Positions 5,450 to 64,000 of a stretch of DNA of 64,000 nucleotides are shown one piece after another. The notes beneath the pieces are model-generated. The model did no database searches and was not told the origin of the DNA. It was given only the letters and a program-made list of their open reading frames with translations. Each line of letters opens with the position of its first letter. Position 1 is the stretch's first letter. The DNA is from Mustelus asterias (lineage: Eukaryota), in contig NW_027590121.1 of assembly GCF_964213995.1 (NCBI RefSeq), forward strand, positions 1,736,001 to 1,800,000, given 5' to 3'. A program made the position numbers and the translations under genes.

Positions 5450-6292
5450 TCATTTGTGAACTCGCTGGTGTCTCCGCAGGCTGGATGACTGAGTGAATCC
5501 CTTCCCACACAAACAGCAGGTGAACGGTCTCTCCCCAGTGTGAACTCGCTGGTGCTCCCGCAGGCTGGACGATGTTCTAAATTTCTTTGTGCAGTGAGAG
5601 CAACTGAACGGTCTCTCCTCAGTGTGAGTGCGCTGGTGGATAACCAGATCCCGAGAACTTTTGAAACCACTGCCACAGTCAGAGCATTTAAAGGGTCTCT
5701 CCTGGGTGTGAGTGAGATTGTGACTCAGCAGGCTGGATGAATGAGTGAATCCCTTCCCACACACAGAGCAGGTGAACGGTCTCTCCCTGGTGTGAATTCG
5801 CTGGTGCTCCCGCAGGTGGGATGATGTTCTAAATGTCTTTGTGCAGTGAGAGCAGCTGAACGGTCTCTCCCCAGTGTGAATCCGCTGGTGGATCGTCAGT
5901 TCCCGAGAGCTTTTGAAACCATTTCCACAGTCAGAGCATTTAAAGGGTTTCTCATTGCTGTGAGTGACTTTGTGTTTTGACAGATTGGATAACTGCATAA
6001 ATCCTTTCCCACACACCAAGCAGATGAATGGTCTCTCTCCAGTGTGAACGCGCTGGTGTCTCTGCAGATCGGGTAAATGAGCGAATCCGTTCCCACACTC
6101 AAAGCAGATGAATGCTCTTTCTCCAGTGTGAACCAGCCGATGTCGCTGCAGATGATATAACCGAGTGAATCCCTTCCCACACACAGAACAGGTGTACGGC
6201 TTCTCTCCAGTGTGAATACGTCGATGAATTTGCAGCTCAGAGGGGGTTTTGCAACCCTTCCCACAGTCCCCACATTTCCACGGTTTATCCAT
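5450..6292 (-). CDS. C2H2 zinc-finger protein, 280 aa, 10 intact fingers, no effector domain seen
   Basis: Uninterrupted ORF from ATG with ten CxxC-x12-HxxxH units. Predicted splice acceptor (ttttacag) at about 6672 upstream. Confidence 0.9.
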   Translation of the reverse strand: MDKPWKCGDCGKGCKTPSELQIHRRIHTGEKPYTCSVCGKGFTRLYHLQRHRLVHTGERAFICFECGNGFAHLPDLQRHQRVHTGERPFICLVCGKGFMQLSNLSKHKVTHSNEKPFKCSDCGNGFKSSRELTIHQRIHTGERPFSCSHCTKTFRTSSHLREHQRIHTRERPFTCSVCGKGFTHSSSLLSHNLTHTQERPFKCSDCGSGFKSSRDLVIHQRTHTEERPFSCSHCTKKFRTSSSLREHQRVHTGERPFTCCLCGKGFTQSSSLRRHQRVHK

Positions 6293-6454
6293 GTTGCAGG
6301 TGTCCTTGTGTTGCTCCAGGTTTGACCATCAGTTGAAGTCTCACACAGAACAAGATTATAGTGCCCTGCTGTGATGGTGCAATATTTTTTCAGGCTGTGT
6401 AACTGGGAGGCTCTTTCCACAGTCACTGCATGGGAAAATCTCAGTTGATTTTGT

Positions 6455-6488
<34 letters not shown>

Positions 6489-7106
6489 CAGTCCTGTTCC
6501 AGTCACAATGATGCTTAAAGACTGCTGAAGCCGATAGAACAGAGAAACATTTCTCCTTCTGGATTCAAAGACCGAAGATATTCAGGTCCCGATGAATTGA
6601 GTGACTCTGTTGATGTTGATGTGATGTTTGGTTTGAGATTTCTGTCTGTAAAATCCTCAACTTCTGATGTCCTGTAAAAGGAGTTTACAAAGGTTATCAC
6701 TGTCAGTACAGGATAGAAATTCAGAACAGACAGTTCTAGTTTCTATGGAACATTATTTCCTCTCTCATTCCCTAAGAGCTGTAAATCTCCATCCCACACA
6801 CTCTCCCTCCATTCTCACTCTGCTGTATCTAATATTCACCCTCCCAATTCTCCTGTCGGTGCTGATTGAGGCTGATTGACAGATCCATGCTCACTGCTTC
6901 CTGTCCTGGACAGAGAGAGCTGGAAATCTCCATGCAGGCTGCCAGACAGATATATGTCTATCTGACTGGACTAACTATGTGTGGAACATACCAACTGGAT
7001 TCACTTCCTTTCCCTTCAGTTGCTGCAAGTCCCCAATATCCCCCAGAATGAGAAAAGAAATGGAAAGGGGGAGAAAAGAAAAAGTGTTTTACTCACAGAT
7101 GTTGGC

Positions 7107-7488
7107 CTTTTTTAAGGTCAAACCAAATAAACAAACTCAAGTTAAATCAGGACAAAGTAAAAGGGGCAGCTCCCCAAAAGGAGGGGGAGCAGCCCAAACA
7201 AAAATCAAAGTACAAAGGAAACTTAAAAACATCAAATCATAATGTGATTATCAGGGTCAATAATGCACCCCAACCCCTGCAGTGCCCAGCGGGGGCGGAA
7301 GGCGTCAAGCGCACCCATGGACATCGCATGTTCCCTCTCCAGGGACACCTGGCCGCGAACGTAGCCACAGTAGAGGGGCAGACAGTCAGGGTGGATGGCC
7401 CCCTCGATCGCCTGCTGCCTGGACCGATAAATGGCGCGCTTTGCCAGGCCCAGGAGCAGGTTCACAAGGAGGTCGCCATCCCGACCCT
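7107..7488 (-). mobile_element. Tx1-clade non-LTR retrotransposon 3' fragment (ORF2 C-terminus plus 3'UTR)
   Basis: Translation LLLGLAKRAIYRSR...VSLEREH...FRPRWA resembles the Tx1/L1-like ORF2 end. The T-rich 3'UTR ends GACCTTAAAAAAG directly before GCCAACATCTGTGAGT. Confidence 0.75.
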
Positions 7489-7727
7489 CTCTGTGTGGGT
7501 TTCCTCCGGGTGCTCCAGTTTCCTCCCACAGTCCAAAGATGTGCGGGTTAGGTTGATTGGCTATGCTAAAAAAATTGCCCCTTAGTGTCCTGGAATGCGT
7601 AGATTAGAGGGATTAGCGGGTAAAATATGTAGGGATATGGGGGTAGGGCCTGGGTGGGATTGTGGTCGGTGCAGACTCGATGGGCCGAATGGCCTCTTTC
7701 TGTGCTGTAGGGTTTCTATGATTCTAT
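7489..7727 (+). mobile_element. HE1-like SINE, 5'-truncated
   Basis: Matches the body and tail of other copies. Confidence 0.8.
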
Positions 7728-7729
7728 TG

Positions 7730-8150
7730 TCCCTCTGAAGACAGAGGTTCTGAACCAGCCCCTGAAACCACGCCCATTGTGACCCGCCACCGACAGCAGC
7801 GCATGCGCTCTCCTTCCCCGCTGAAACAAGATGGCGGCCGATAACCGGGGCCTGTTCCCGAGATAAAAGCCTTGGAGCTGTAAACCCAGGACCTGCAGGG
7901 TCTTATTCGGGCCGTGCGGCCTACAGCGGATGTTTGTGAAGCCATAGCTCCCTCCCTCCCCCGACTCCCGGCTCCATTTCTCCCGCAGCGCCACCGACTC
8001 ACCCGTTGAAAAAAGCAGCTCCCGCACTCACAGGGCTCCGAGCAAAGTGGCACTGCGCACGCTCCAGATATAGCATTGCGCCTGCGCAATGGACTCCTGT
8101 GGAATGAATAGGACACTTTCATACCCGCAGGGGCACCTGGGAATTAACGG
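7730..8150. promoter_or_regulatory. CpG-rich promoter/first-exon cassette
   Basis: CpG-dense, with an NRF1-type GCGCATGCGC (about 7799), a YY1-type AAGATGGCGGC (about 7828) and a minus-strand donor GGTGAGT (about 7997-8003). Direct paralog at about 50285-50720. Confidence 0.6.
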
Positions 8151-9064
8151 CGTCATTGTCAAAGACAATAATAGAAAATTATCTTGTGCAATTAAGATCA
8201 AATAATTTTTTTAAATGCATTCCTCGGAATTTGTGCGCTGCCATTCTCCATTTATAAAATTGATTTAAACCAGTGTTCTCCTGTGGGAATACCCCGAGTT
8301 TTTAAAACTTTTCCCACTGGTTTCCTCCCCTCTCTTTGCTCTCCTGAAGGTGCTCACACTGGTTGGGTAAATCCCACAGAGACTGGTTTCTTTCACTTTC
8401 TTTCTCCTGATGCTGGATATTCTGTTTTATGGAATGATACATCACAGATGGAAACCATTTGGCTCATCCTGCCCAGTCGGGCTGTCTTTAAGATCTATCC
8501 AATTAATCCCACAGCCCTGCTGGCAGAGTGAGAACAATCTATATATACTGCAGCAATGCAGGAGGTGAATGGAAAATGTTTTCCAGTTGCATACCTCTCA
8601 GACACACTCACCCCAGAAAGATAAATTGGCCTGTGTACTAAGCAGATATTAAGGTTCCACTTAGAATTAAAACAGAAGGTGCTGGAAAAATGCAGCAGTC
8701 GCCAGGGCCGAGTTTATGGTCAAAATGATGGTGCTGAGCTGCCGTTAGAAAATAACCAGCAATCCAACAAGCCACTCAAAATATTGAATCAAACAAAATT
8801 GATCAAAGATTGAGCCAAAGTATTCTGTTTTCCAACATGGTGCTATGATTTTTTTGTGATGGTTTTAATATTCTCACAATTACCTGGTGTAGTCCGGGTT
8901 TATTTTATACTCATTCCAACCCATCGCTGTCCATGAAGCACATTACCCCCACTCTGATTCTCCATCCCATCAGAGACAACTCAGTCACTGACTGGAAATT
9001 AGGGCTTTTAATGAGAGCTCTGACAACCGAGAATGCACCGTCGGCAGAATAAACCCGAGCTCAC

Positions 9065-12000
9065 AAACCCCAGACAGTGAACATTATCCCCCCCAGACCC
9101 GAATATAAAACAGTGAACATTATCCCCCCCAGACCCGAATATAAAACAGTGAACATTATCCCCCCCAGACCCGAATATAAAACAGTGAACATTATCTCCC
9201 AGACCCAAATATAAAACAGTGAACATTATCCCCCAGACCCAAATATAAAACAGTGAACATTATCCCCCAGACCCGAATATAAAACAGTGAACATTATCCC
9301 CCCCAGACCCGAATATAAAACAGTGAACATTATCCCCCCCAGACCCAAATATAAAATAGTGAACATTCTCCCCCAGACCCAAATATAAAACAGTGAACAT
9401 TATCCCCCAGACCCGAATATAAAACAGCGAACATTATCCCCCCAGACCCGAATATAAAACAGTGAACATTCTCCCCCCAGACCCGAATATAAAACAGTGA
9501 ACATTATCCCCCCCCAGACCCAAATATAAAACAGTGAACATTCTCCCCCAGACCCGAATATAAAACAGTGAACATTATCCCCCAGACCCGAATATAAAAC
9601 AGCGAACATTATCCCCCCAGACCCGAATATAAAACAGTGAACATTATCCCCCCCAGACCCGAATATAAAACAGTGAACATTCTCCCCCCAGACCCGAATA
9701 TAAAACAGCGAACATTATCCCCCCCAGACCCGAATATAAAACAGTGAACATTATCCCCCCCAGACCCGAATATAAAACAGTGAACATTATCCCCCAGACC
9801 CGAATATAAAACAGTGAACATTATCCCCTCCAGACCCGAATATAAAACAGTGAACATTATCCCCCCCAGACCCGAATATAAAACAGTGAACATTATCCCT
9901 CCCAGACCCGAATATAAAACAGTGAACATTATCCCCCAGACCCGAATATAAAACAGTGAACATTATCCCCCAGACCCGAATATAAAACAGTGAACATTAT
10001 CCCCCCAGACCCGAATATAAAACAGTGAACATTATCCCCCCCAGACCCGAATATAAAACTGTGAACATTATCTCCCAGACCCGAATATAAAACAGTGAAC
10101 ATTATCCCCCCCAGACCCGAATATAAAACAGTGAACATTATCCCCCAGACCCGAATATAAAACAGTGAACATTATCCCCCCCAGACCCGAATATAAAACA
10201 GTGAACATTATCCCCCAGACCCGAATATAAAACAGTGAACATTATCCCCCCCAGACCCGAATATAAAACAGTGAACATTATCCCTCCCAGACCCGAATAT
10301 AAAACAGTGAACATTATCCCCCAGACCCGAATATAAAACAGTGAACATTATCCCCCAGACCCGAATATAAAACAGTGAACATTATCCCCCCAGACCCGAA
10401 TATAAAACAGTGAACATTATCCCCCCCAGACCCGAATATAAAACTGTGAACATTATCTCCCAGACCCGAATATAAAACAGTGAACATTATCCCCCCCAGA
10501 CCCGAATATAAAACAGTGAACATTATCCCCCAGACCCGAATATAAAACAGTGAACATTATCCCCCCCAGACCCGAATATAAAACAGTGAACATTATCCCC
10601 CAGACCCGAATATAAAACAGTGAACATTATCCCCCCCAGACCCGAATATAAAACAGTGAACATTATCCCCCAGACCCGAATATAAAACAGTGAACATTAT
10701 CCCCCCCAGACCCGAATATAAAACAGTGAACATTATCTCCCAGACCCGAATATAAAACAGTGAACATTATCCCCCCAGACCCGAATATAAAACAGTGAAC
10801 ATTATCCCCCCCAGACCCAAATATAAAACAGTGAACATTATCTGCCAGACCCGAATATAAAACAGTGAACATTATCTCCCAGACCCGAATATAAAACAGT
10901 GAACATTATCCCCCTCAGACCCGAATATAAAACAGTGAACATTATCTCCCAGACCCGAATATAAAACAGTGAGCATTCTTCCCCAGACCCAAATATAAAA
11001 TAGTGAACATTATCCCCCAGACCCGAATATAAAACAGTGAACATTATCCCCCCCAGACCCGAATATAAAACAGTGAACATTATCCCCCAGACCCGAATAT
11101 AAAACAGTGAACATTATCCCCCCAGACCCGAATATAAAACAGTGAACATTACCCCCCCCAGACCCGAATATAAAACAGTGAACATTATCCCCCCCAGACC
11201 CGAATATAAAACAGTGAACATTATTCCCCCCAGACCCGAATATAAAACAGTGAACATTATCACCCCCAGACCCGAATATAAAACAGTGAACATTATCCCC
11301 CAGACCCGAATATAAAACAGTGAACATTATTCCCCCCAGACCCGAATATAAAACAGTGAACATTATCCCCCAGACCCGAATATAAAACAGTGAACATTAT
11401 CCCCCCCAGACCCGAATATAAAACAGTGAACATTATCCCCCCCAGACCCGAATATAAAACAGTGAACATTATCCCCCAGACCCGAATATAAAACAGTGAA
11501 CATTATCCCCCAGACCCAAATATAAAATAGTGAACATTATCCCCCAGACCCGAATATAAAACAGTGAACATTATCCCCCCAGACCCGAATATAAAACTGA
11601 ACATTATCCCCCAGACCCGAATATAAAACAGTGAACATTATCCTCCAGACCCGAATATAAAACAGTGAACATTATCCCCCCCAGACCCGAATATAAAACA
11701 GTGAACATTATCCCCCAGACCCGAATATAAAACAGTGAACATTATCCCCCCCAGACCCGAATATAAAACAGTGAACATTATCCCCCCAGACCCGAATATA
11801 AAACAGTGAACATTATCCCCCCCAGACCCAAATATAAAACAGTGAACATTATCCCCCCCCGCAGACCCGAATATAAAACAGTGAACATTCTTCCCCAGAC
11901 CCAAATATAAAACAGTGAACATTATCCCCCCAGACCCGAATATAAAACAGTGAACATTATCCCCCCCAACCCCGAATATAAAACAGTGAACATTATCCCC

Positions 12001-13030
12001 CAGACCCGAATATGAAACAGTGAACATTATCCCCCCCAGACCCGAATATAAAACAGTGAACATTATCCCCCCCCCGCAGACCCGAATATAAAACAGTGAA
12101 CATTCTTCCCCAGACCCAAATATAAAATAGTGAACATTATCCCCCAGACCCGAATATAAAACAGTGAACATTATCCCCCCCAGACCCGAATATAAAACAG
12201 TGAACATTATCTCCCAGACCCGAATATAAAACAGTGAACATTATCCCCCAGACCCGAATATAAAACAGTGAACATTATCCCCCCCAGACCCGAATATAAA
12301 ACAGTGAACATTATCCCCCCAGACCCGAATATAAAACAGTGAACATTATCCCCCCCCGCAGACCCGAATATAAAACAGTGAACATTCTTCCCCAGACCCA
12401 AATATAAAACAGTGAACATTATCCCCCCAGACCCGAATATAAAACAGTGAACATTATCCCCCCCAGACCCGAATATAAAACAGTGAACATTATCTCCCAG
12501 ACCCGAATATAAAACAGTGAACATTATCACCCAGACCCGAATATAAAACAGTGAACATTATCCCCCCAGACCCGAATATAAAACAGTGAACATTATCCCC
12601 CCCAGACCCGAATATAAAACAGTGAACATTATTCCCCAGACCTAAATATAAAACAGTGAACATTATCCCCCCCAGACCCGAATAGAAAACAGTGAACATT
12701 ATCGCCCAGACCCGAATATAAAACAGTGAACATTATCCCCCCCGGACCCGAATATAAAACAGTGAACATTATCCCCGCCAGACTCAAATATAAAACAATG
12801 AACATTATCCCCCCCAGACCCAAATATAAAACAGTGAACATTATCCCCCCCAGACCCGAATATAAAACAGTGAACATTATCCCCCAGACCCGAATATAAA
12901 ACAGTGAACATTATCCCCCCCAGACCCGAATATAAAACAGTGAACATTATCCCCCCCAGACCCGAATATAAAACAGTGAACATTATCCCCCCCAGACCAA
13001 AATATAAAACAGTGAACATTATCGCCCCCA
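9065..13030 (+). repeat. Satellite/minisatellite array, 34-36 bp unit (AGACCCGAATATAAAACAGTGAACATTAT plus C5-7), roughly 110 copies
   Basis: Directly visible tandem repeat with no unique spacers. Confidence 0.98.
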
Positions 13031-13479
13031 TACTTGAATCCAAAATTGTCCTGATGGATTCAGACAGCATTATCACAATATTCCAAACGTGTTTTTTCCA
13101 GGAATAGATTCAGCGCCTGCATCACTGGAGGCCAGAGATACTCTCCTCAAACTCGGCTCATGTGAGGAATCCCTCCAATGAGGCTCAGGAATGCGCCAAC
13201 CAGAGTCACGTGACAACCAAGTGTGTAACTGAACAAACTAGCGCAACGTTGAAGATGTGTTTCAGTGTGAAATGATTTGTTTAACCTGTTGCTTCAGATT
13301 TGAGAGAAAATGTCCCTTTCTGGGGTAATTTGACCTTGACCCAGGCACTTTTCAGATCGGAAAGTGATGGCCTTTAGCACAATCACAAGGCTGCACAATA
13401 CAGAGGGAACACTAATCTGTTTCATTCTGAAACTATGTCGTGGTTACACGAGTGATACTTTCCACTAATTAGCTGCCAG

Positions 13480-16221: not shown

Positions 16222-16553
16222 GACGGCAGCACAGTGGTTAGCACTGCTGCCTCACAGCTCCAGGGACCTGGGTTTGATTCCCAACTTGGGTCACTGTCTG
16301 TGTGGAGTCTGCCCGTTCTTCCCATGTCGGCGTGCGTTTTCTCCAGATGCTCCGGTTACCTCCCATCATCCAAAGATGCGCCAGTTAGGTGCATTGGCCG
16401 TGCTAAATTGCCTCTTCGTGTCCTGGGATGAGTAGGTTAGAGGGATTAGCAGGTTACATATGTGGGGTTACGGGAACAGGGCCGAGGTGGGATTGTTGTT
16501 GGTGCAGACTCGATGGGCCGAATAACCTCCTTCAGCACTGTAGGGATTCTATG
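16222..16553 (+). mobile_element. HE1-like SINE
   Basis: Full head and tail; absent from the paralogous site at about 58925. Confidence 0.85.
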
Positions 16554-16949
16554 AAATACTTTGGGAGAATTGCTATTTTAATGGGTATTTTCACAAATGC
16601 TATAAAATGATTTTTCAAAACAAATTAATATTTTCTTCAACAGATGATGAATAAATAAAACGTATTTAATAAAACAACCACCCAGTGTGGGGTTCAGGAT
16701 TCTAACTCGGGGTTTCTGAGCTCCAGGAACCACTAACTGAACCAGCCAGGAATTGTCTCCACAAAACTTCCCCAACTCCCTCCCGGGAAAAAGCTGCAAA
16801 CTCGGGAGCTGCAGCTTTTTACTGGGGGTGTTGGGGCCTCCAGCGGGTGTTTGTGAATCCTCCCCGCCCACCTCCCAGGGTTTCCTTCCTTCCCAGAGAT
16901 CAGAGTCCTCATTGATTTGAGGCCAAAGTGTAACCTCTTATTTATTGTC

Positions 16950-17600
16950 CCCCTCCCCCATCCTCTGATGTGAACCATCCTCCAGTGGCTGAGCCAGGAT
17001 GGGGCCGTTAACCTGGGCCTGTTCCCGGGAGGGAGGGAGAAGCCCCGCAGCTGCAAACCAGGGAGCTGACAATGATTCTGAAGGGTTTGCGGATCCACAA
17101 AGTGTTTCCAAATCCTCCCAGCCACCGCCTAACGCTGACTCCGCTTCTCCGGGACAAACAAGCGCCAAGGACAGCAATGACACTGCGCATGCTCCACATC
17201 ACAATGCCCGGGGACTGATTGACGGCAGCTCCGGTCCAATAGGAAGAGGGGGCAGGACTGGGGGACCGAGCGGGAGCGGCTGGTCCTCCAACCAATCGGA
17301 GTGAACGAGGGGCGGGACCTGAAGCATGCGCAGTACGGGTAATGGCGACGGACAGACGGATGGTTTTTACTCGGAAGCGAGATCAATCCGAGGTAGAGGG
17401 CGGCGTGCGGGGAATCTTAAATGTGGCGGGTGGGTGGAGAGACTTTGTAAACATGTTGTTCAAACCCAAACCCCGGAAATGAACTTCCCGGTCCCCCCCT
17501 TTGTACCAAATGGAGCGGCAGCTTGTAGTGTTAGACCCGGGCTGACTGCCGCCATTGAGGCTGCATGTGGGAGGCCGGCAGGGATTGTGATCGGAGAGTG
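16950..17600. promoter_or_regulatory. CpG-rich promoter cassette
   Basis: CCAAT boxes (about 17237, 17292), GC box GGGGCGGG, GCGCATGC motifs and ETS-like CCGGAA. Inverted copies at about 37620-38260 and 58190-58550. Confidence 0.6.
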
Positions 17601-19133: not shown

Positions 19134-19349
19134 GATTGACAGATCCATGCTCACTGCTTCCTGCCCTGGACGCAGAGTGCTGAAACTTTCCATGCAGGCT
19201 GCCAGACAGATAAATGTCTACATTACTGGAGTAAAAATGTGTGGAATATACAGATTCACTTCATTCCCTTCAGTTGCTGCAAGTCCCCAATTTCCCCCAG
19301 AATGAGGAAAGAAATGGAAAGGGGGAGAAAAGAAAAAGAAAAGAAAAGA

Positions 19350-19834
19350 TGTTGCCCAGAGGCGGAAGTTTCACTCTGAAGCTTATTGGCCAACGTCCGC
19401 ATTGTGACGCCACGATAGAGCGTCTGAATCAGCCAATAGGAATCTCTCTGCTCCGCAGTGACGTCTCCGGGTTCCAGTGCGCAGGCCCGGGCGCGCGGAC
19501 CCGGGAGCCCCGCCCCCACCCATTGTTCCCCTCCCCCTACACCACATCGAACCAAGGTTTCCAGGCACCGGCTGACGGCTCCGTCAGAGAAGCCGCTCGG
19601 GGATCTCCCCCTCTCCCCGGCCCGGGACTGCAAATGTGCGAGGGAGAGGGGAAGCTGCGCATGTGCGGGGGAGAACCCACCCTCTGATCTTCATGCTGAG
19701 GTGTTGACCAATGGGAAGAGTTGGAGGACCGGAAGGACTCTGGTCTTCCACCCAATCAGAGCGCGGGCTTTGTGTGAATGAAGATTGATCTTCAGATAGA
19801 CTGAAACTTCCTCCTGTCGCCAACATCTGTGAGT
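19350..19834. promoter_or_regulatory. Bidirectional-looking CpG promoter with exon-1 end and splice donor (GTGAGT at 19829-19834)
   Basis: CCAAT/ATTGG boxes on both strands, TGACGT, GC boxes and TGCGCATG; homologous intron-like sequence leaves from both ends. Inverted copy at about 35600-36130. Confidence 0.6.
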
Positions 19835-21697
19835 GGGAAAGATTGGATTGTCCAGCCAGTCCACCATATTGGCCGTTCGCTTTGCGTGTTGGCCAGTATA
19901 GTGTGCTCCAGGCAGGGGGCGGGCAGAGGATAAGGAGTTCAAGGCGGGCTTAATGCGCGCCTTGCGGTGAGCTTTTGGAAATGTGGCCGCTGGGAGGAGC
20001 GCCTTGGTCGGCGTGAAGTTTCTGTTTCAAGTGCTTGGGTTCGTGACTTGTGCAAGAACTTTTTGTTTCGGCTGGGGCTTGTTGAATGCTGCTCTCGCTG
20101 GGATTCCTGTGCCTTGAAAGGCGTGGCCCAGGTAGATGCAATCTCGGAAGACCCAAGCCAGGGAGGAGCCATTTGGGAACTATGGTTTCGGAAGGTTCAG
20201 CCGCGGAAGGTGTGACCCCAGACGGTGCAGCCCCAGTGGGTGTGATTTTGGAAGTTCTGGCCCGGAGTGGTGGACTTTGGAGGACTGTAGTTGAGCGTTG
20301 TCGACTTCGGACGGTGGAATGTTGATGGGCGAAGCTCTGGAAGGCGATGCCTCCGAAATGTTTCACAATTGTATGGTTGTTCATGGATTGTTTGTTATTG
20401 TAATATGTGGTTTTCCTGTTATGATAGTTGGTGGTTTGTTCCGGCCCCCGTCTATTTTCTTGCGTTATTTGTGGCCTGGGGGGCATCCCCCCCTGGATAA
20501 AGTCACCCCCGGGGGGTGTGACATCCACTTGGGGAAAGTTCTGGGTGGTGAAGCCCCGGACATAGTAACACCAGAGGGATTTTTATTCTCCGGGAGAAAA
20601 ATTGGGAAGGCAGGCCCGAACTGAGTACCCTGGAGAGACTCTCCCACCGCCCCGGCTGAAATTCCGGAAGGGATTCCGGATTGAGTAGGTTCGGGGTGGT
20701 TTCCCCCATTTCCCCCCTCCGGCTGAACATCCGTAAGGTGTAACCCCCGGATATGAGTACCACTGGAGGGTTGCATCCCCCGGCAGGTGGACAAACCCAG
20801 GGGACGGTGCCCTTATGCTTCAGTGTTTATTTTTTGTTGTGTACAGTTGTAGTGTTGTGTTAATGTTTGTAGATTTGTAGATTATGATTTGTAAATGGAG
20901 GTGTATTTTGAGGGCAATGCCCTGGAAAACTGTAATTGATGATGAACCCTTCCGAAATGGAAGGTAGTAATTGATAAATGGATGGTGTTAGCCATTGGTA
21001 ATGTATTTTTCAGATTTGTTCTTTGTTCATTTGTAATTGTTTTGTAATATCGTGTTTGTACTAACCAACGGAAAATCTTTGCATTGTTTGTGGCCTGGGG
21101 GGTATCCCCCTCCCCCCCCCCCTGGATAGAGTGACCCCCGGGGGGTGTGACATCCAGTTGGGGAAAGTGTCCGGGGCACCCAGAGGGGTAACACCGGGGG
21201 GGTTTTGTTCTCCGGGAGAAAAATTGGGAAGGCAGGCCGAATTGAGTATCCCGGAGAGCTTTTCCCACCGCCCCAGCCGAAAATCCGGAAGGCAGTCCGG
21301 ATTGAGTAGGTTCGGGGTGGTTTTCCTGTCCCCCCGCCTCCAGTCGAACATCCGTCAGGTGGAACCCCCGGACCTGAGTACCTCTGGAGGGTTGCATCCC
21401 CCGGCAGGGGAAAAACCCAGGGGACGGTGCCCTTATGCTTCAGTGTTTATTTTTTGTTGTGTACAGTTGTAGTGTTGTGTTAATGTTTGTAGATTTGTAG
21501 ATTATGATTTGTAAATGGAGGTGTATTTTGAGGGCAATGCCCTGGAAAACTGTAATTGATGATGAACCCTTCCGAAATGGAAGGTAGTAACTGATAAATG
21601 GATGGCGTTAGCCACTGGTAATGTATTTTTTTCACATTTGTTCTTTGTGTATTTGTAATTGTTTTGTATTAACGTATTTGTAATAAACAAAAAGAAA
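19835..21697 (+). mobile_element. Unclassified A-tailed element, copy 1 (with internal duplication of the 3' module)
   Basis: Starts right after GCCAACATCTGTGAGT and ends AATAAACAAAAAGAAA; absent at the paralogous empty site (about 35595-35630). Confidence 0.7.
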
Positions 21698-21712
21698 CCA
21701 ACATCTGTGAGT

Positions 21713-22951
21713 GGGAAAGATTGGATTGTCCAGCCAGTCCACCATATTGGCCGTTCGCTTTGCGTGTTGGCCAGTATAGTGTGCTCCAGGCAGGGGGCGG
21801 GCAGAGGATAAGGAGTTCAAGGCGGGCTTAATGCGCGCCTTGCGGTGAGCTTTTGGAAATGTGGCCGCTGGGAGGAACGCCTTGGTCGGCGTGAAGTTTC
21901 TGTTTCAAGTGCTTGGGTTCGTGACTTGTGCAAGAACTTTTTGTTTCGGCTGGGGCTTGTTGAATGCTGCTCTCGCTGGGATTCCTGTGCCTCGAAAGGC
22001 GTGGCCCAGGTAGATGCAATCTCGGAAGACCCAAGCCAATAAGGAGCCATTTGGGAACTATGGTTTCGGAAGGTTCAGCCGCGGAAGGTGTGACCGCAGA
22101 CGGTGCAGCCCCAGTGGGTGTGATTTTGGAAGTTCTGGCCCGGAGTGGTGGACTTTGGAGGACTGTAGTTGAGCGTTGTCGACTTCGGACGGTGGAATGT
22201 TGATGGGCGAAGCTCTGGAAGGCGATGCCTCCGAAATGTTTCACAATTGTATGGTTGTTCATGGATTGTTTGTTATTGTAATATGTGGTTTTCCTGTTAT
22301 GATAGTTGGTGGTTTGTTCCGGCCCCCGTCTATTTTCTTGCGGTATTTGTGGCCTGGGGGGCATCCCCCCCTGGATAAAGTCACCCCCGGGGGGTGTGAC
22401 ATCCACTTGGGGAAAGTTCTGGGTGGTGAAGCCCCGGACATAGTAACACCAGAGGGATTTTTATTCTCCGGGAGAAAAATTGGGAAGGCAGGCCCGAACT
22501 GAGTACCCTGGAGAGACTCTCCCACCGCCCCGGCTGAAATTCCGGAAGGGATTCCGGATTGAGTAGGCGGGGTGGTTTCCCCATTTCCCCCTCCGACTGA
22601 ACATCCGTAAGGTGTAACCCCCGGATATGAGTACCACTGGAGGGTTGCATCCCCCGGCAGGTGGACAAACCCAGGGGACGGTGCCCTTATGCTTCAGTGT
22701 TTATTTTTTGTTGTGTACAGTTGTAGTGTTGTGTTAATGTTTGTAGATTTGTAGATTATGATTTGTAAATGGAGGTGTATTTTGAGGGCAACATGCACTG
22801 GAAAACTGTAATTGACGATGAACCCTTCCGAAATGGAAGGTAGTAACTGATAAATGGATGGCGTTAGCCATTGGTAATGTATTTTTTCACATTTGTTCTT
22901 TGTGTATTTGTAATTGTTTTGTATTAACGTATTTGTAATAAACAAAAAGAA
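21713..22951 (+). mobile_element. Unclassified A-tailed element, copy 2 (about 1.24 kb, single 3' module)
   Basis: Near-identical to copy 1 at offset 1878, with the same 5' start GGGAAAGATTGG and the same tail. Confidence 0.7.
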
Positions 22952-23066
22952 ACCAACAGTGTTGTTGGGTGTGTTAGCAGCATTGAATTTGCTGCTGCAA
23001 ATCGTCAACATTTCTTTGCATGTGAAAGCACTGGTTGAAAGAACTGAGCAGCTTTCTCTGCCCTGT

Positions 23067-23137
23067 GCATTGGTGGTTCAGTGGTAGAATTCTTGCCTGT
23101 CATGCGGGAGGCCTGGGTTCGATTCCTGGGCAATGCA
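23067..23137 (+). tRNA. tRNA-Gly(GCC)-derived copy with GTC anticodon, probably a pseudogene
   Basis: 71 nt with 6 differences from vertebrate tRNA-Gly-GCC as recalled (4 CpG>TpG, anticodon GCC>GTC at 23099-23101, one acceptor-stem mismatch). A/B boxes are intact and TTTT follows at about 23148. Confidence 0.9.
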
Positions 23138-23950
23138 AAGCCGCTTCTTTTACCTTAAAAGAGGCCCACATCTGTGAGTAAAACACTTTCTTTTCTCCCC
23201 CTTTCCATTTCTTTTCTCATTCTGGGGGAAATTGGGAACTTGCAGCAACTGAAGGGAAAGGAAGTGAATCCAGTCTGTACATTCCACACATTGTTAGTCC
23301 AGTCAGATAGACATAGATCTGTCTGGCAGCCTGCATGGAGATTTCCAGCTCTCTGTGTCCAGGACAGGAAGCAGTGAGCATGGATCTGTCAATCAGCCTC
23401 AATCAGCACCTTCAGGAGAATTGGGAGGGTGAATATTAGATACAGCAGAGTGAGAATGGAGGGAGAGTGTGTGGGATGGAGATTTACAGCTTTTGGGGAA
23501 TGAGAGAGGAAGAATGTTCCACAGAAACTAGAATTGTCTGTTCTGAATTTCTATCCTGTGCTGACATTGATGAATTTTTCAAACTCGTTTACAGGATATG
23601 AGAAGGTGAGGATTGACAGACCAAAATCTTGAAACAAACATCACATCAGCATCTGACACCCTCACTCAATTCATCGGACCTGAATATTATCAGCCTTTGA
23701 ATCTAGAAGGAGAAATGTTTCTCTGTTCTGTCTGCGTCAACAGGCCTTTAATATCAATGTGACTGGAAAAGCACCAAGGCACAGATACTCCCGAGTGACA
23801 GTGTTCCACTGCACTGAGTGTGGAAAGAGCTTTAACCAGTTACACAGCCTGAAAATACATTGCAGCATTCACAGCGGGGAGAGACTGTACCCGTGTTGTG
23901 TGAGATTTAACTGATTGTTTAACCTGGAGAGTCACAAGGACACCCGCACC

Positions 23951-24961
23951 ATGGAGAAACGGTGGAAATGTGGGGACTGTGGGAAGAGATACAGAGCTCC
24001 CTGTAAACTGGAAATTCATCGACGCAGTCACACCGGGGAGAGGCCATTCACCTGCTCTGTGTGTGGGAAGAGATTCACTCGGTTATATAATCTGCAGCGT
24101 CATTAGCTGGTTCATACTGGAGAAAGAGCGTTCATCTGCTTTGAGTGTGGGAACAGATTCGCTCATTTACCCGATCTGCCGAAACACCAGCGTGTTCACA
24201 CTGGAGAGAGACCATTCACCTGCTTGGTGTGTGGGAAAGGATTTATGCAGTTATCCAACCTGTCGAAACACAAAGTCACTCACAGCAATGAGAAACCCTT
24301 TAAATGCTCTGACTGTGGGCGTGATTTCAAAACCTCTCGGGAACTGATGATTCACCAGCGCATTCACACTGGGGAGAGACCGTTCACCTGCTTGGTGTTT
24401 GGGAAAGGATTTACGCAGTTATCCAACCTGTCAAAACACAAAGTCACTCATAGCAATGAGAGACCCTTTAAATGCTCTGACTGTGGGAGTGGTTTCAAAA
24501 GCTCTCGGGAACTGATTACCCACCAGCGCATTCACACTGGGGAGAGACCGTTCAGCTGCTCTCACTGCGCAAAGAAATTTAGAACGCCATCCCACCTGCG
24601 GATACACCAGCGAGTTCACACTGTGGAGAGACAGTTCACCTGCTCTGTGTGTGGGAAGGGATTCACTCAGTCATCCAGCCTGCAGAACCACAATCTCACT
24701 CACACCAATGAGAGACCATTTAAATGTTCTGACTGTGGAAGTGATTTCAAAAGCTCTCGGGAACTGATGATTCACCAGCGCATTCACACTGAGGACAGAC
24801 CGTTCAGCTGCTCTCACTGCTCAAAGAGATTTAGAACGTCATCCCACCTGCGGATACACCAGCGAGTTCACACTGGGGAGAGACCTTTCACTTGCTGTGT
24901 GTGTGGGAAGGGATTCACTCAGTCATCTAGCCTGTGGACACACCAGCAAGTTCACAAGTGA
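23951..24961 (+). pseudogene. C2H2 zinc-finger gene, 12 fingers, in-frame TAG at 24104-24106
   Basis: Two ORFs in the same frame; paralog of 5450-6292 with one extra finger pair. Predicted intron 23174-23594 (GTGAGT...TTTACAG). Confidence 0.8.
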
Positions 24962-32320: not shown

Positions 32321-33247
32321 TCACTCGTGAACTTGCTGGTGTATCCGCAGGTGGGTTAACCGAGTGAATCCCTTCCCACACTGAGAGCAGGTGAACGGCC
32401 TCTCCCCAGTGTGAACTCTCTGGTGTGTCCGCAGGTTGGATAACTGAGTGAATCCCTTTCCACACTGAGAGCAGATGAATGGTTTCTCCCCAGTGTGAGC
32501 TCGCTGGTGTCTCAGCAGCTGGGATGAAACGCTGAAACCCTTCCCACACTGAGAGCAGGTGAATGGCCTCTCCCCTGTGTGAACTCGCTGGTGTGTCCGC
32601 AGGTGGGTTGACTGACTGAATCCCTTCCCACACTGAGAGCAGGTGAATGGTTTCTCCCCAGTGTGAACTCTCTGGTGTGTCTGCAGGTTGGATGACACAG
32701 TGAATCCCTTCCCACACTGAGAGCAGGTGAATGGTTTCTCCCCAGTGTGAACTCGCTGGTGTGTCCGCAGTTCGGATAATCGAGCGAATCCCTTCCCACA
32801 CTGAGAACAGGTGAACGGCCTCTCTCCAGTGTGAACTCGCTGGTGTCTCTGCAAGTCTGATAACTGAATGAATCCCTTCCCACATTGAGAGCAGGCGAAT
32901 GGTTTCTCCCCAGTGTGAACTCGCTGGTGTATCTGCAGGTCGGATAATCGAGTGAATCCCTTCCCACATTGAGAGCAAGTGAACGGCCTCTCCCCTGTGT
33001 GAACCCGTTCGTGTGTCCGCAGGTTGGATGACTGAGTGAATCCCTTCCCACACTGAGAGCAGGTGAATGGTCTCTCCCCAGTGTGAACTCGCTGGTGTGC
33101 CCGTAAGCTGGATAACTGATTAAACCCCTTCTCACACTGAGAGCAGATGAACGGCCTCTCCCCAGTGTGACTGCGCCGATGAGCTTCCAGCTCTGATGGG
33201 GTTCTGTATCCCTTCCCACAGTCCACACATTTCCATGGTTTCTCCAT
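32321..33247 (-). CDS. C2H2 zinc-finger protein, 308 aa from ATG, 11 intact fingers
   Basis: Uninterrupted array of 84-bp finger units; predicted acceptor (ttttacag) at about 33598. Confidence 0.92.
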
Positions 33248-33919
33248 GATGCAGGTGTCCTTACCTCTCTCTTGGGTGGACAATTAGTTGAATTTCGTCC
33301 ACATGCAGAACAAGATTACAGTCTCTACCCGCTGTGAATGGTGTGATATTTATTCAGTCTGTGTAACTGATTAAAGCTCTTTAGTCAGTGCATTGGAACA
33401 CCCTCACTCGAGTGTGGCAGAGTGTTGATGCTTTTTCACTCACACTGACATTTCAAATCTTTTCAAATCGACAGACTGGACAATCATTTCTCCTTCTGGA
33501 TTCAAAGTCCGATGATATTGAGGTCCCAAGGGATACGACTCTGTCACGTCTAGACGTGACGTTTGAGATTTCGGCCTGTGATTCCTCTTTCAATATCCTG
33601 TAAAATGAGTTTCCAAAAGTCATCAGTGTCAGTACAGGATAGAAATTCAGAACAGACAATTTCTATGGAACATTCTTTCCTCTCTCATTCCCCAAAAGCT
33701 GTAAATCTCCATCACACACACTCTCTCCCCATTCTCAGCAGATCTGGCAGCATCTGTATGGATAGAAAAGAACTGATGTTTCAGAGTTTTGATAAAGGGT
33801 CATTTCGACAAGAAACATCAGCTCTTTTCTCTCCTTACAGATGCTGCCAGACCTGCTGAGATTTTCCAGCATTTTCTCTCTTGGTTTCAGATTCCAGCAT
33901 CCGCAGTAATTTGCTTTTA

Positions 33920-35499: not shown

Positions 35500-36340
35500 T
35501 CTGCACCCTCCCTGGATTCACTTCCTTTCCCTTCAGTTGCTGCAAGTCCCCAATGTCCCCCAGAATGAGAAAAGAAATGGAAAGGGGGCTGAAGAGAAAG
35601 TGTTTTACTCATAGATATTGGCGACAGGAGGAAGTTTGAGTCTGTCTGAAGATCAATCTTCATTCACACAAAGCCCGCGCTCTGATTGGCTGGAAGACCA
35701 GAGTCCTTTCGGTCCTCCAACTCTTCCCATTGGTCAACACCTCAGCATGAAGATCAGAGGGTGGGTTCTCCCCTGCACATGCGCAGTCCCAGGCCGGGGG
35801 GAGGGGGAGATCAGCAAGCGGCTTCTCGCTCTGGCCGGAGCCGCCAGCCGGTTGCCTGGAAACCTTGGCTCGATGTGGTGTAGGGGGAGGGGAACAATGG
35901 GTGGGGGCAGGGCTCCCGGGTCCGCGAGCCGGGCCTGCGCACTGGAACCCAGAGACGTCACCGCGGAGCAGAGTGATTCCTATTGGCTGATTCAGGCAGG
36001 ACTCCATTGTGATGTCACAATGCGGAAATTGTCCGATGAGCTTCAGAGTGAAACTCCCTCCTCTTTTGTCCCGACTTCATCTGAGTTTGTTTATTTGGTT
36101 TGACCTAAAAAGAGGGCAACATCTGGGAGGAAATCAATGTTTCCCCCTTTCCATTTCTTTTCTCATTCTGGGGGAAACTGGGGACTTGCAGCAACTGAAG
36201 GAAATGGAGTGAATCCAGTCTGTATATTCCACACATTGTTACTCCAGTAATGTCGACATATATCTGTCTGGCCGCCTGCATGGAGATTTCCAGCTCTCTG
36301 TGTCCAGGGCAGGAAGCAGTGAGCATGGATCTGTCAATCA
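35500..36340. promoter_or_regulatory. Inverted paralog of the 19.1-19.8 kb promoter cassette, lacking the 3.3-kb insert
   Basis: Sequence similarity by eye; the empty site reads (minus strand) CCTGTCGCCAATATCTATGAGTAAAACAC. Confidence 0.7.
36064..36114 (+). mobile_element. About 50-bp Tx1-like 3' terminus
   Basis: TGAGTTTGTTTATTTGGTTTGACCTAAAAAGAG matches the 3'UTR end of the 7107-7488 element; absent at the paralog at about 19357. Confidence 0.7.
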
Positions 36341-39300
36341 CACATGAGGACGGCCTCAAGCGGGACCTTGGGTTCACGTCACACTACCTGTAATCCCCAC
36401 GACTTGCCTGGGCTTGCAAAATCTCACTAACTGTCCTGGCTGGAGACAATACACATCTCTTTAACCTGTGCTTAACCCTCTCTCCACTCACATTGTCTGT
36501 ACTTTTAAGACTTGAATACCTGTAAAGGCTCGCATTCCAACCATTATTCTGTAAATTGAGTTTGTGTCTCTGTGCCCTGTTTGTGAACAGAACTCCCACT
36601 CACCTGACGAAGGAGCAGCGCTCTGAAAGCCTGTGGCTTATGCTACCAAATAAACCTGTTGGATTTTAACCTGGTGTTGTGAGACTTCTTACTGTGCTTA
36701 CCCCAGTCCAACGCCGGCATCTCCACACTCTGAGTGGAAACAGAGAGAAGTAGGAGAGGCCAGAGGTGAAGAGAGAGATTTTATACATCTACAACTCAAC
36801 AGGAACTTTGACAGAATTTCCAAACCCTGTGAACACCATCAGCTCCAAGTTCCTCTCCAACCCACACACCATCCTGACTTGTCTGACATCCAGTACTGAA
36901 AGAACAGAAATTTATTTCATATAAATACTGGGAAGACTGAACCCATTGTGTTCAGTCCCCACTACAAACTCCACTCCCTCACCAACAACTTTATCTCTCC
37001 TCCTGGCAACTGTCTGAGGCTGAACCAGGCTGTTCACAACCAGGGTGAAATAGTTCATCCCAAGATGAGCTTCCAGCCACGTGTCGACATCATCATCAAG
37101 ACCACCTTCATTCATAGAAACATTAATAGTAATTAATAATAATGAATAATAAAATACAGTGTAGAAGGAGCCCATTCAGCCCATCGAGCCTGCACCAACA
37201 ACAATCCCATCCAGGCCCTATCCACATATTTACCTGTTAATCCCCCTGATACCAAGTGGCAACTTATCGTGGCCAATCCGTCTAACCGGCACATCTTTGG
37301 ACTGTGGAAGGAAACCGGAACACCCGGAGGAAACCCACAGACACGGGGAGAATGTAGAAACTCTGCACAGACAGCGACCTGAGGCTGGAATTGAACCCGG
37401 GTCCCTGGCGCTGTTAGGCAGCTGCACTAACCACTGTGCCACCGGGCCACATGTCAGTGCCATCGCCCGACTCCAGCCCAGTCTCAGCTCATCTGGAACC
37501 CTCATCCATTCCATTGTGACGTCACACTCTCACCCATTCCATTGTGACCTCACACCCTCACCCATTCCATTGTGACATCACACTCTCACCCATTCCATTG
37601 TGACGTCAGGGCTTCACTCTCCGATCACAATCCCTGCCGGCCTCCCACATGCAGCCTCAATGGCGGCAGTCAGCCCGGGTCTAACACTACAAGCTGCCGC
37701 TCCATTTGGTACAAAGGGGGGGACCGGGAAGTTCATTTCCGGGGATTGGGTTGGAACAACATGTTTACAAAGTCTCTCCACCCACCCGCCACATTTATCA
37801 TTCCCCGCACGCCGCCCTCTACCTCGTATTGATCTCGCTTCCAAACTAAAACCGTCCGTCCGTTGCCATTACCCGCACTGCGCATGCTTCAGTCGCAGCC
37901 CGGCCCCGCCTCTCATTCACTCCGATTGTTTGGAGGACCAGCCGCTCCCGCTCGGTCCTCCAGCCCCGCCCCCTCTTCCTATTGGCCCGGAGCTGCCGTC
38001 AATCAGTCCCCGGGCATTGTGATGTGGAGCATGCGCAGTGTCATTGCTGTCCTTGGCGCTTGTTTGTCCCGGAGAAGCGGAGTCAGCGTTAGGCGGTGGC
38101 TGGGAGGATTTGGAAACACTTTGTGGATCCGGAAACCCTTCAGAATCATTGTCAGCTCCCTGGTTTGCAACTGCGGGGCTTCTCCCTCCCTCCCTCCCGG
38201 GAACAGGACCAGGTTAACGGCCCCATCCTGGCTCAGCCACTGGAGGATGATTCACATCAGAGGATGGGGGAGGGGGACAATAAATAAGAGGTTACACTTT
38301 GTCCTCAAATCAATGAGGACTCTGATCTCTGGGAAGGAAGGAAACCCTGGGAGGTGGGCGGGGAGGATTCACAAACACCCGCTGGAGGCCCCAACACCCC
38401 CAGTAAAAAGCTGCAGCTCCCTGCAGTGACCAGAGAAAATAATTGATTGATTTTATTTTCAATCTGTAAAAAAGAACTGAACCCAGCCAGAATAGAGGGT
38501 AGGAGAAAATATTTGTGAAGATCTTTCACACTGGGTTTGCCAGGCTGACCAACTCTCTCAGAGAAAATGAAAGGACATCCTTCATGAGTCTGTCGGAGCA
38601 GGTGAGCAGTATTGTGTGCGGTGCTGCTGGAACTGTGTGGGTGGACACGGGCTGGTTGGCAGCCAGAACAGTAGGAAGAGGGTGCTGCACTGATCCATCT
38701 TATGGGTGAAACAGCGCCCATACGCCATGCAGCCTGGCACACTGGAGTCATGGGACAATCCAGTGAAATATGAGATGATTGGTCAATGTGGGAGTTGGTT
38801 GCAGGACAGGGAGGAGGGAAAGTGTTCAGGATGAGGATTTACTGCTGCACAGGAACAAGTGAGGAAACGATGTTCCACAGAAAGTAGTTTCAACTTCCAG
38901 TATCCGCAGTAATTTGCTTTGATTCCAGATAAACTTATTGGACTTTAACCTGGTGTTCTGAGACTTCTTACTGTGCAAACTCCACAGAGACAGTCACCCA
39001 CCGCTGGAATCGAACCCAGACTCAGTGAGGCAGCAGTGCTAACCACTGTGCCACAGTGAGGGTAGTTTGCCGCAAATTTCGGGTGATAACAATGGGCTGG
39101 ATGTTGCTCAGAATGTGGAGCACTGCAGCAAAGTACAGAGAGACAGAGCAGCAGACTGGACTGAGAAATGGAGTCTGCAGACTGGAACTGGCAGCATGAG
39201 GAGAGGTTATTTAGTCTAACACTCACAGCAATCTACAACCCACCCCCATTACCGAGACAGTGAGACAGAGATTACAAACACTCACCAACACAGCTCCAGT

Positions 39301-43299: not shown

Positions 43300-43790
43300 C
43301 TGAAGAGAGCTCGGTCCTGCTGGTCTGCTTCTCAGCTTGCGATTCTGGAAGAGAGCTTGGTCCTGCTTGTCTGTGTCACTGCTTGCGATTCTGGAAGAGA
43401 GCTTGGTCCTGCTTGTCTGTGTCCCTGCTTGCGATTCTGGAAGAGAGCTTGGTCCTGCTTGTCTGTGTCCCTGCTTGCGATTCTGGAAGAGAGCTTGGTC
43501 CTGCTTGTCTGTGTCACTGCTTGCGATTCTGGAAGAGAGCTTGGTTCTGCTTGTCTGTGTCCCTGCTTGCGATTCTGGAAGAGAGCTTGGTCCTGCTTGT
43601 CTGTGTCCCTGCTTGCGATTCTGGAAGAGAGCTTGGTTCTGCTTGTCTGTGTCCCTGCTTGCGATTCTGGAAGAGAGCTTGGTCCTGCTTGTCTGTGTCC
43701 CTGCTTGCGATTCTGGAAGAGAGCTTGGTTCTGCTTGTCTGTGTCCCTGCTTGTGATTCTGGAAGAGAGCTCGGTTCTGCTTGTTTGACT
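43300..43790 (+). repeat. 46-bp minisatellite, about 10 copies
   Basis: Unit CTTGCGATTCTGGAAGAGAGCTTGGTCCTGCTTGTCTGTGTCCCTG. Confidence 0.95.
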
Positions 43791-50259: not shown

Positions 50260-50720
50260 TAGCTGCGCATGCGCCCTGCTGCCTATTGACCCTCTGAAGA
50301 TCGAGGTTCTGAACCAGCCCCTGAAACCACGCCCATTGTGACCCGCCACCGACAGCAGCGCGTGCGCCCTCCGTCCCCGCTGAAACAAGATGGCGGCCGA
50401 TAACCGGTGCCTGTTCCCGGGATAAAAGCCTGGCAGCTGCAAACCCGGGATCTGCAGGGACTTATTCAGGCCGTGCGGCCTACAACGGATGTTTGGAAGC
50501 CATAGCTCCCTCCCTACCCGACTCCCGGCTCCATTTCTCCCACAGCCCAACCGACTCACCCGCAGAAAAATGTTCCAACTCCCACACTCGGAAGACTCCG
50601 AGCAAAGCGACAGTGCGCACGCTCCAGATATAGCATTGCGCCTGCGCAATAGGCTCCTGTGGAATGAATAGGACACTTTCACACCCGCAGGGGCACCTGG
50701 GAATTAACGGCGTCATTGTC
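50260..50720. promoter_or_regulatory. CpG promoter/first exon, probably of the 46.9-48.1 kb ZNF
   Basis: NRF1- and YY1-type motifs; the minus-strand donor GGTGAGT at about 50554-50560 faces the acceptor at about 48196. Confidence 0.55.
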
Positions 50721-63344: not shown

Positions 63345-64000
63345 TAATGTTCACCATTTTATATTCAAATCTGGGGGGGATAATGTTCACTGTTTTATAT
63401 TCGGGTCTGGGAGATAATGTTCACTGTTTTATATTCAGGTCTGGGGGATAATGTTCACTGTTTTATATTCGGGTCTGGGAGATAATGTTCACTATTTTAT
63501 ATTCGGGTCTGGGAGATAATGTTCACTGTTTTATATTGGGGTCTGGGGGATAATGTTCACTGTTTTATATTTGGGTCTGGGGGATAATGTTCACTGTTTT
63601 ATATTGGGGTCTGGGGGATAATGTTCACTGTTTTAGATTCGGGTCTGGGGGATAATGTTCACTGTTTTATATTCGGGTCTGGGGGGGATAATGTTCACTG
63701 TTTTATATTCGGGTCTGGGTAGATAATGTTCACTGTTTTATATTCGGGTCTGGGGGATAATGTTCACTGTTTTATATTCGGGTCTGGGGGATAATGTTCA
63801 CTGTTTTATATTCGGGTCTGGGGGATAATGTTCACTGTTTTATATTCGGGTCTGGGGGATAATGTTCACTGTTTTATATTCGGGTCTGGGGGGATAATGT
63901 TCACTGTTTTATATTCGGGTCTGGGGGATAATGTTCACTGTTTTATATTCGGGTCTGGGGGATAATGTTCACTGTTTCATATTCGGGTCTGGGGGATAAT
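63345..64000 (-). repeat. Second array of the 34-36 bp satellite in inverted orientation (runs off the window end)
   Basis: Exact reverse complement of the 9-13 kb unit. Confidence 0.97.

Follow-up and report, generated by a model that had tools for sequence, protein, structure and literature searches.

In the whole stretch of DNA analysed here (64,000 nucleotides, hereafter the window), C2H2 zinc-finger open reading frames (ORFs) form a cluster that is interspersed with repeats. Within it lie two copies of a GC-rich segment of 460–480 bp, copy 1 at 19358–19834 and copy 2, 92.9% identical to it, at 35607–36064, both with CCAAT boxes. Copy 1 has 60% GC and a CpG observed/expected ratio of 0.73, against 0.43 for the window; the ratio for copy 2 is 0.57. 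Each copy carries the same short motif at both of its ends, facing outward, and, judged from its letters, the segment would be a two-way promoter.

There are five motif-bearing ends (including one at 7 kb), all of which point to sequence homologous to zinc-finger splice acceptors, degenerate downstream of 36 kb. The 7-kb end holds a filled target, CCAACATCTGTGAGT, made up of the motif and a possible splice donor (7091–7105, minus strand), within a host flank (6873–7105, minus strand) that is common to four paralogs at 88–96% identity and continues to a splice-acceptor-like region and a C2H2 zinc-finger ORF with 10 zf-C2H2 stretches (5450–6328, minus strand). In segment copy 1 the left end (19347–19356, minus strand), paralogous to the 36-kb site, holds no insert; the right end is filled, and beyond it a C2H2 zinc-finger ORF follows the 23-kb site (24107–24961, plus strand). 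In copy 2 it is the end at 35621 that is empty and the end at 36116 that is filled. The paralog of the 36-kb site, at 19.36 kb, had already been described as empty, and the alignment bears this out: compared with the filled site, precisely 49 nt are absent from it, and there is no duplication. The empty target at 35.6 kb (CCAATATCTATGAGT, 35607–35621, minus strand), which the sequence-only reading did not mention, is the paralog of the 7-kb and 23-kb sites and lies upstream of a C2H2 zinc-finger ORF at 32321–33283 (minus strand); it differs by two substitutions in target and donor, which may have freed the site from targeting or may be mere drift.

Of the five ends, only those at 7 kb and 23 kb have a GTGAGT donor after the motif; the corresponding letters are GGGAGG at 36 kb, ATGAGT at 35.6 kb and a pyrimidine run at 19.36 kb. 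The label of exon-1 ends, given to these sites earlier, is therefore not supported as it was stated, with a donor at only two of the five paralogous ends; for those two, at 7 kb and 23 kb, it is plausible from the sequence. The junctions lie in a non-repetitive motif 10–25 nt upstream of a pyrimidine-rich run, not inside the run. An Rfam search found no family at the target, its sole find being the tRNA at 23067–23137, which is part of an insert; a U2-like reading of the target, based on the common ATCTGT, was set aside, as it has no Rfam support and CCAACA also occurs in empty sites.

At least three other zinc-finger genes in the window have promoter types without the target motif. A duplicated promoter-like class for other zinc-finger genes, lacking the motif, is found at 7724–8466 and 50283–51024, and another at 16553–17316, 58171–58925 and 37886–38421. 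The window also contains a satellite array (9074–13100 and 63345–64000) with a unit of ~35 bp, as estimated by eye, whose blocks are 92–95% identical and in opposite orientation, and a ~92-bp tandem repeat with long open frames on both strands (43302–43787).

Inserts at the filled ends

The insert at 7 kb (7106–7489, minus strand) is the 5'-broken 3' end of a Tx1-like LINE, comprising the ORF2 C-terminus and a 3' UTR that is rich in T and contains one GC stem-loop (fold z −2.25; 3 of 200 shuffles do as well). It terminates in AAAAAAGG, where the majority of the family has AAAAGAGG, without poly(A). The ORF2 end that had been reported for this copy is indeed there, as an intact open-frame end of 84 aa (7486–7235, minus strand) followed by a stop (7234–7232), and it is Tx1-like through a homology link of two steps. 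The 84-aa fragment has no Pfam match; over its 84 aa it is 65% identical to the C-terminal end of P0064, a protein with an RT end and a zf-RVT domain that both score below the cut-off. P0064 in turn shows 36% identity over 618 aa to P0069, a protein of 1304 aa with Exo_endo_phos and RVT_1 above the cut-off and zf-RVT (zinc knuckle) below it. The best of nine PDB matches to the first 243 aa of P0069 is LTx (81.8 bits), which exceeds the wild-type L1 endonuclease (63.8 bits) by a gain located in the hairpin loop. LTx is an L1 endonuclease with the Tx1L loop (PMC1950540), and the extended endonuclease hairpin loop of Tx1L type is accordingly found in the relative P0069 only, which stands at the mentioned 36% from P0064. 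By this two-step link the 7-kb piece would be the ORF2 end of an L1/Tx1-type LINE, Tx1-like in kind, and membership of the family in the Tx1 clade is likely.

No full-length copy of the LINE lies within the 64-kb window, a search of the JGI metagenome and viral collections found neither the tail nor any locus coding for a relative, and the protein searches, one of which covered only 2283–5000 aa, did not find the family's own endonuclease/RT and yielded no named Tx1 reference protein. Upstream, the place of the 5' junction is taken by a 5'-truncated interspersed repeat with 20 local matches (7490–7727, plus strand), which joins the LINE copy to the other promoter type (paralog 50283–51024); with the junction lost to this repeat, a target-site duplication is not scorable at 7 kb.

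Pieces of the ORF2 end are also present in five predicted host proteins (P0070, P0026, P0042, P0058 and P0006), one of them named KIF25, from the white shark; P0070 is a white shark gene model with a piece of the LINE family, and P0006 consists of a similar ORF2-end piece in a long tandem array. These occurrences may be mis-annotation, exonisation or a LINE-derived minisatellite. A whale shark paper reports Tx1-like repeats in sharks (PMC8455134); together with P0070 this makes an origin of the window in a cartilaginous fish probable.

The insert at 36 kb is a Tx1 tail of 49–51 nt (36065–36115, plus strand), identical to the 7-kb tail at 44 of 51 positions and inserted without duplication; host-type GCAACATCT follows directly at 36116. 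The first target base is G here, as in the site's own empty paralog, and C at the other filled sites, and because the 36-kb base matches the local host paralog, the motif belongs to the host sequence. At 36060–36115 the two arms of an 8-bp inverted repeat, CCTCTTTT ... AAAAGAGG, formed partly by host and partly by element letters, enclose the 49-nt insert and may have guided its 5' junction.

The 23-kb site is more elaborate. Its halves (the left ending at 19834, the right running from 23164) are 3.3 kb apart and enclosed by a 16-bp direct repeat, of which the left copy, GCCAACATCTGTGAGT (19819–19834, plus strand), has a context identical to the empty 35.6-kb site, and the right copy (23164–23179, plus strand) is identical to the left at 15 of 16 positions and runs into the host flank. 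Between them, all on the plus strand, lie module U+A of the non-coding element X (19835–21064), with CCAAT and GC boxes at its start and a T-rich end, followed by CCAAC at 21065; module B (21079–21697), 91.7% identical to A, which ends in AATAAA and an A-rich run and is followed by the 15-nt target CCAACATCTGTGAGT at 21698; a second U in tandem, joined to an A/B hybrid (21698–22952), followed by CCAACA at 22953; a piece at 22959–23151 comprising 108 nt of no assigned origin, a tRNA gene copy (23067–23137) and a 14-nt trailer ending in TTTT; and, fused to it, a 13-nt Tx1 tail, ACCTTAAAAGAGG (23152–23164). The second X copy was rejected as an independent insertion, its 99.1% identity in U and its A/B hybrid marking it as a recent tandem copy. 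Read simply, the stack represents three insertions in turn at the same base; each used whichever intact target then lay furthest to the right, and they left duplications of 15–16, 5 and 6 bp.

A Tx1-like 3' end had been proposed at this site as well. The tail is present, but only 13–16 nt are common with the 7-kb tail and what stands upstream of it is a tRNA gene copy, which ARAGORN assigns to Asp by its anticodon (GTC) and which scores 46.7 bits with the Rfam tRNA model; its body presumably resembles tRNA-Gly. By analogy, the fusion of tRNA and tail looks like the chimeras of small RNAs and LINEs that arise by template switch. Element X has a promoter-like start, a 620-bp GC-rich module and a T-rich end with AATAAA; none of its five frames has a Pfam match, there is no usable Atlas match, and its Rfam matches are all below threshold, so that it was rejected as a coding sequence or known RNA. 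It was also rejected as a solo LTR, in spite of a readable TGT...ACA, since these letters are host target in the empty paralogs and no matching short flanking duplication is present. Element X (19835–22952) is a candidate for a non-autonomous partner of the LINE.

Position of the junction and independence of the insertions

The tail ACCT(T/A)AAAA(G/A)AGG, that is, ACCT(T/A)AAAAGAGG, has three matches in the 64-kb window at no more than one mismatch, whereas 100 shuffles average 0.16 and never reach three. All three tails adjoin the target (C/G)C(A/C)ACATCT at paralogous segment ends; the strings of the three tail/target junctions first noticed in the sequence-only reading are present at all three of its places. 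The exact 10-mer target G[CG]CAACATCT matches five times in the window, where 0.31 matches are expected, and four of these matches are paralogous; the fifth, at 29787, is unrelated and, with neither a tail nor a paralogous flank, was taken as chance and not as a further target site. With one mismatch there are 22 matches, the paralogs 23164 and 35622 included. CCAAC occurs in the window at a frequency of 0.0012 per site and [CG]CAA at 0.0071, and none of the three tails stands at any of the ~200 other sites beyond the target among the 214 [CG]CAAC sites.

Sequence-specific insertion is favoured by reciprocal occupancy, by the 16-bp target-site duplication, by the presence of more 3' ends at the same base and by the stacked copies in contigs of three other organisms described below, and is thereby better supported than in the sequence-only reading; the junctions themselves are real, and site-specific insertion by a Tx1-like LINE probably accounts for them. 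As the best explanation it was anticipated correctly; the exact junction was not, and likely lies one base further right. The G that had been counted as a target base is better read as the end of the element or as a microhomology of 1–2 nt: the 3' ends of modules A and B in the 23-kb stack halt directly before CCAAC without a G, which would move the nick by that one base. The best reading is that the junction lies immediately 5' of (C/G)CAAC and that the target is regenerated at every insertion. The hallmarks of target-primed reverse transcription (TPRT) found here are a common 3' end on copies of 13, 49 and >380 nt and a duplication of 0 bp at 36 kb and 16 bp at 23 kb.

How many events these sites represent is a separate matter. 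The earlier count of only two clearly independent insertions (23 kb and 36 kb) holds, now by virtue of the reciprocal occupancy of two segments that are 92.9% identical, which implies that two insertions took place once the segment had been duplicated. At 7 kb and 23 kb the genes form an inverted duplication, with flanks 95–96% identical that end in the tail. A single event at 7 kb and 23 kb would require a later swap of nearly the whole LINE for a tRNA locus, and we lean towards the 7-kb insertion being a third independent event, with a confidence only somewhat above even.

Contigs from three other organisms (X1, X10 and X12) were aligned to positions 6870–7489; the best word share among 21 runs was 0.53, which does not imply the same species. 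The aligned contigs, 4566 in X1, 7191 in X10 and 3125 in X12, are spread over LINE and host flank, and thousands of contigs on both regions indicate that both are high-copy. Summed contig depth is not a copy number, and a contig may stop at the tail, so that these depths carry no estimate of the share of copies at the target. At position 7109 the letter that differs from the 7-kb copy (G) makes up 99.4% (X1), 97.9% (X10) and 99.7% (X12) of the depth, so that AAAAGAG is the usual end of the family, from which the 7-kb copy deviates. Among the best 12 of 20 joints, four reveal a tail end, giving seven tail ends in total over the three organisms, and all seven go on into CCAA, CCAAC, CCAACAT or CCAACATC; in two of the seven the flank lies in unaligned letters and is unselected, while the other five were found by alignment to the window flank and are biased. 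The criterion of target specificity in PMC4494074, one sequence type in >20% of flanks, concerns the share of copies genome-wide. Several of the tail ends in these joints are followed immediately by another truncated copy, forming stacks of tail, target and truncated copy, in which the shortest tails measure ~9 and ~25 nt. Among the best 18 of 1289 loose ends, X12 provides one empty promoter site (3 contigs, agreement 0.91), and X10 provides 47 contigs that match through CCAA only and then have unlike flanks (agreement 0.35). These 47 diverging contigs, the main result against a strict reading of the target, fit stacks with a 4-bp duplication or, equally, sites outside zinc-finger genes.

Mechanism and alternative explanations

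On balance we favour, with a confidence moderately better than even, that a high-copy Tx1-like LINE integrates by TPRT at one base of a sequence that is repeated at the two-way promoter ends of a zinc-finger multigene family. Against this stand the 47 contigs of X10 that diverge after CCAA, and the zinc-finger genes of the window, three or more, whose promoters lack the motif. The junctions to be accounted for have a fixed 3' end at a single base, 5' truncation to 13, 49 and >380 nt, and duplications of 0, 5–6 and 15–16 bp. The chemistry of TPRT consists of a bottom-strand nick, priming of reverse transcription at the RNA 3' end and a second nick downstream (PMC3747384). Following that of APE-type LINEs, the ORF2 endonuclease would nick the bottom strand at the base before (C/G)CAAC, a position presumably set by the endonuclease, given that RNAs with unrelated ends halt at this one base; the RNA end AAAAGAG(G) would be primed with a G microhomology of 1–2 nt, and the second nick would fall 0–16 nt downstream. 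Each insertion leaves an intact target 3' of itself, and later insertions stack there. The order at 23 kb would have been U+A, then B, then the chimera of tRNA and tail, with element X placed by the same machinery in trans or by a sister family, and the chimera possibly formed when reverse transcription switched template from the tail to a Pol III transcript terminating in UUUU. A multicopy gene family may offer a low-cost landing site in open chromatin.

The promoter ends could instead be hot spots of a genome-wide preference for a short motif (CCAA or SCAAC), owing to the motif itself, to open germ-line chromatin and to tolerated damage. This agrees with the 47 contigs of X10, which stop matching right after CCAA among the loose ends mentioned, with the abundance of [CG]CAA and with the weakened specificity described for other families (PMC4640811); the window tails, however, avoid the ~200 other [CG]CAAC sites, and variable short duplications followed by the next insert give the same pattern of loose ends, such stacks being directly seen, which leaves this explanation unlikely. 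More doubtful is that RNA–DNA pairing, with a lax endonuclease, determines the site: source copies in the target would be read through, and RNA ending in GAGGCCAAC... would anneal to the nicked target. The absence of poly(A), the fixed end AAAAGAG at 97.9–99.7% of depth and the continuation of all tail ends in the joints examined into CCAA are in keeping with it, as is the host G at 36 kb if the primer spans a mismatch, and read-through target RNA helps the integration of R2 and others, according to work cited in PMC4494074. Modules A and B, with their unrelated A-rich ends, nevertheless halt at the same base, which points to a nick defined by protein.

Two further alternatives concern the nature of the host sequence, and both appear very improbable. 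The target may be the terminus of a transposon or repeat that has escaped recognition and moves along with zinc-finger genes, in which case the insertions would follow an ordinary Tx1 habit, since many Tx1 targets are transposons (PMC4494074), and the host flank itself is very high-copy in X1, X10 and X12; yet each of the five motif ends adjoins either the segment rich in GC and CCAAT or what has replaced it, and faces sequence like a zinc-finger acceptor, and Rfam has no family at the target. Alternatively, one old insertion could have been copied among paralogs by gene duplication or gene conversion. The inverted duplication of the 7-kb and 23-kb genes, the similarity of their flanks up to the tail and the tandem duplication of X are what passive copying would produce, but the reciprocal occupancy, in which each side has its empty paralog, contradicts it for 23 kb versus 36 kb, and the unlike insert lengths, the unlike duplications, the host-type base at 36 kb and the new stacks in other organisms also speak against it. 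The reading that we prefer, TPRT at one base of the promoter ends, could be extended to a Tx1 lineage specialised on the promoters of a rapidly evolving zinc-finger family, presumably a transposon-silencing repertoire, where, inserted at a single base that separates promoter from coding exon, it would use them for its own read-through transcription and knock out or separate repressor genes as a counter-defence, with mutation of the host target (the empty 35.6-kb site) as the answer; we regard this extension as rather unlikely.

Significance and relation to known target-specific elements

If the 5' ends of a protein-coding multigene family are truly the target of a LINE, the "safe haven" idea becomes wider, and the LINE would be a direct mutagen driving birth-and-death turnover of the zinc-finger genes of cartilaginous fishes. 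It would also provide a testable case of a transposon striking a gene class linked to transposon control; a passage of a 2019 review states that no transposon-encoded counter to KRAB zinc fingers was known (PMC6719617). A new APE endonuclease specificity, (C/G)CAAC, would be on offer for work on site-specific gene insertion. Should the preference be for CCAA genome-wide only, this would be one more Tx1 family, of modest significance.

Tx1 families are often target-specific, and tandem insertions enclosing a duplication have been described (PMC4494074). In the literature consulted, the recorded targets comprise RNA genes and spacers, satellites and microsatellites, and transposons, those hit by LINEs at a single base being RNA genes, telomeric or simple repeats and other transposons (PMC4494074, PMC4640811, PMC3706591, PMC6719617, PMC10547256, PMC3747384, PMC1950540, PMC8455134, PMC7265360), and the copies of SINEU-1B in introns of a multicopy RING/B-box gene family are mentioned there without that family being a target (PMC4494074). 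Tx1 site specificity is thus already known, and a protein-coding multigene target was not found described in the literature searched, which yielded no LINE targeting zinc-finger gene starts and no shark Tx1 targets. Such a target could be on record in Repbase, in subscription journals or in the supplementary files of PMC4494074, outside that scope.

A close parallel is Tx1L of Xenopus laevis, the type element of the Tx1 clade. Like the family described here, it is an APE-type LINE with a precise 3' junction, its endonuclease is sequence-specific (PMC1950540), and its hairpin loop is near-identical in the full-length relative P0069. It differs in that its target is the DNA transposon Tx1D, in place of a zinc-finger promoter end with a duplication of 0–16 bp. 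The crocodilian Tx1-Mar and SINEU share with the present case a target common to an autonomous Tx1 group and its non-autonomous partners, tandem insertions enclosing a duplication, the occurrence of both duplicated and unchanged targets, and the gain of small-RNA sequence by template switch (PMC4494074). Their target, however, is Mariner, and SINEU has a poly(A) end and U1/U2 heads, whereas the tail here is AAAAGAGG and a tRNA gene copy is what was captured.

Keno (U2 snRNA), Mutsu (5S rRNA), Dewa (tRNA-Leu spacer) and Kibi and Koshi (microsatellites) resemble this family in using a multicopy host target, but the targets given for them are RNA genes, spacers and simple repeats, none of them a protein-coding gene family (PMC4494074, PMC4640811, PMC3706591). 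In contrast to the first three, the target here is not a snRNA, 5S or tRNA locus by Rfam, and unlike those of Kibi and Koshi it is not a (TC)n or (TTC)n microsatellite. Tf1 is a promoter-preferring transposon. P element, Mutator and mPing likewise insert near gene starts, in open chromatin (PMC6719617). The preference of all four is regional and belongs to other classes of transposon, whereas in the present case it is for a single base of one gene family.
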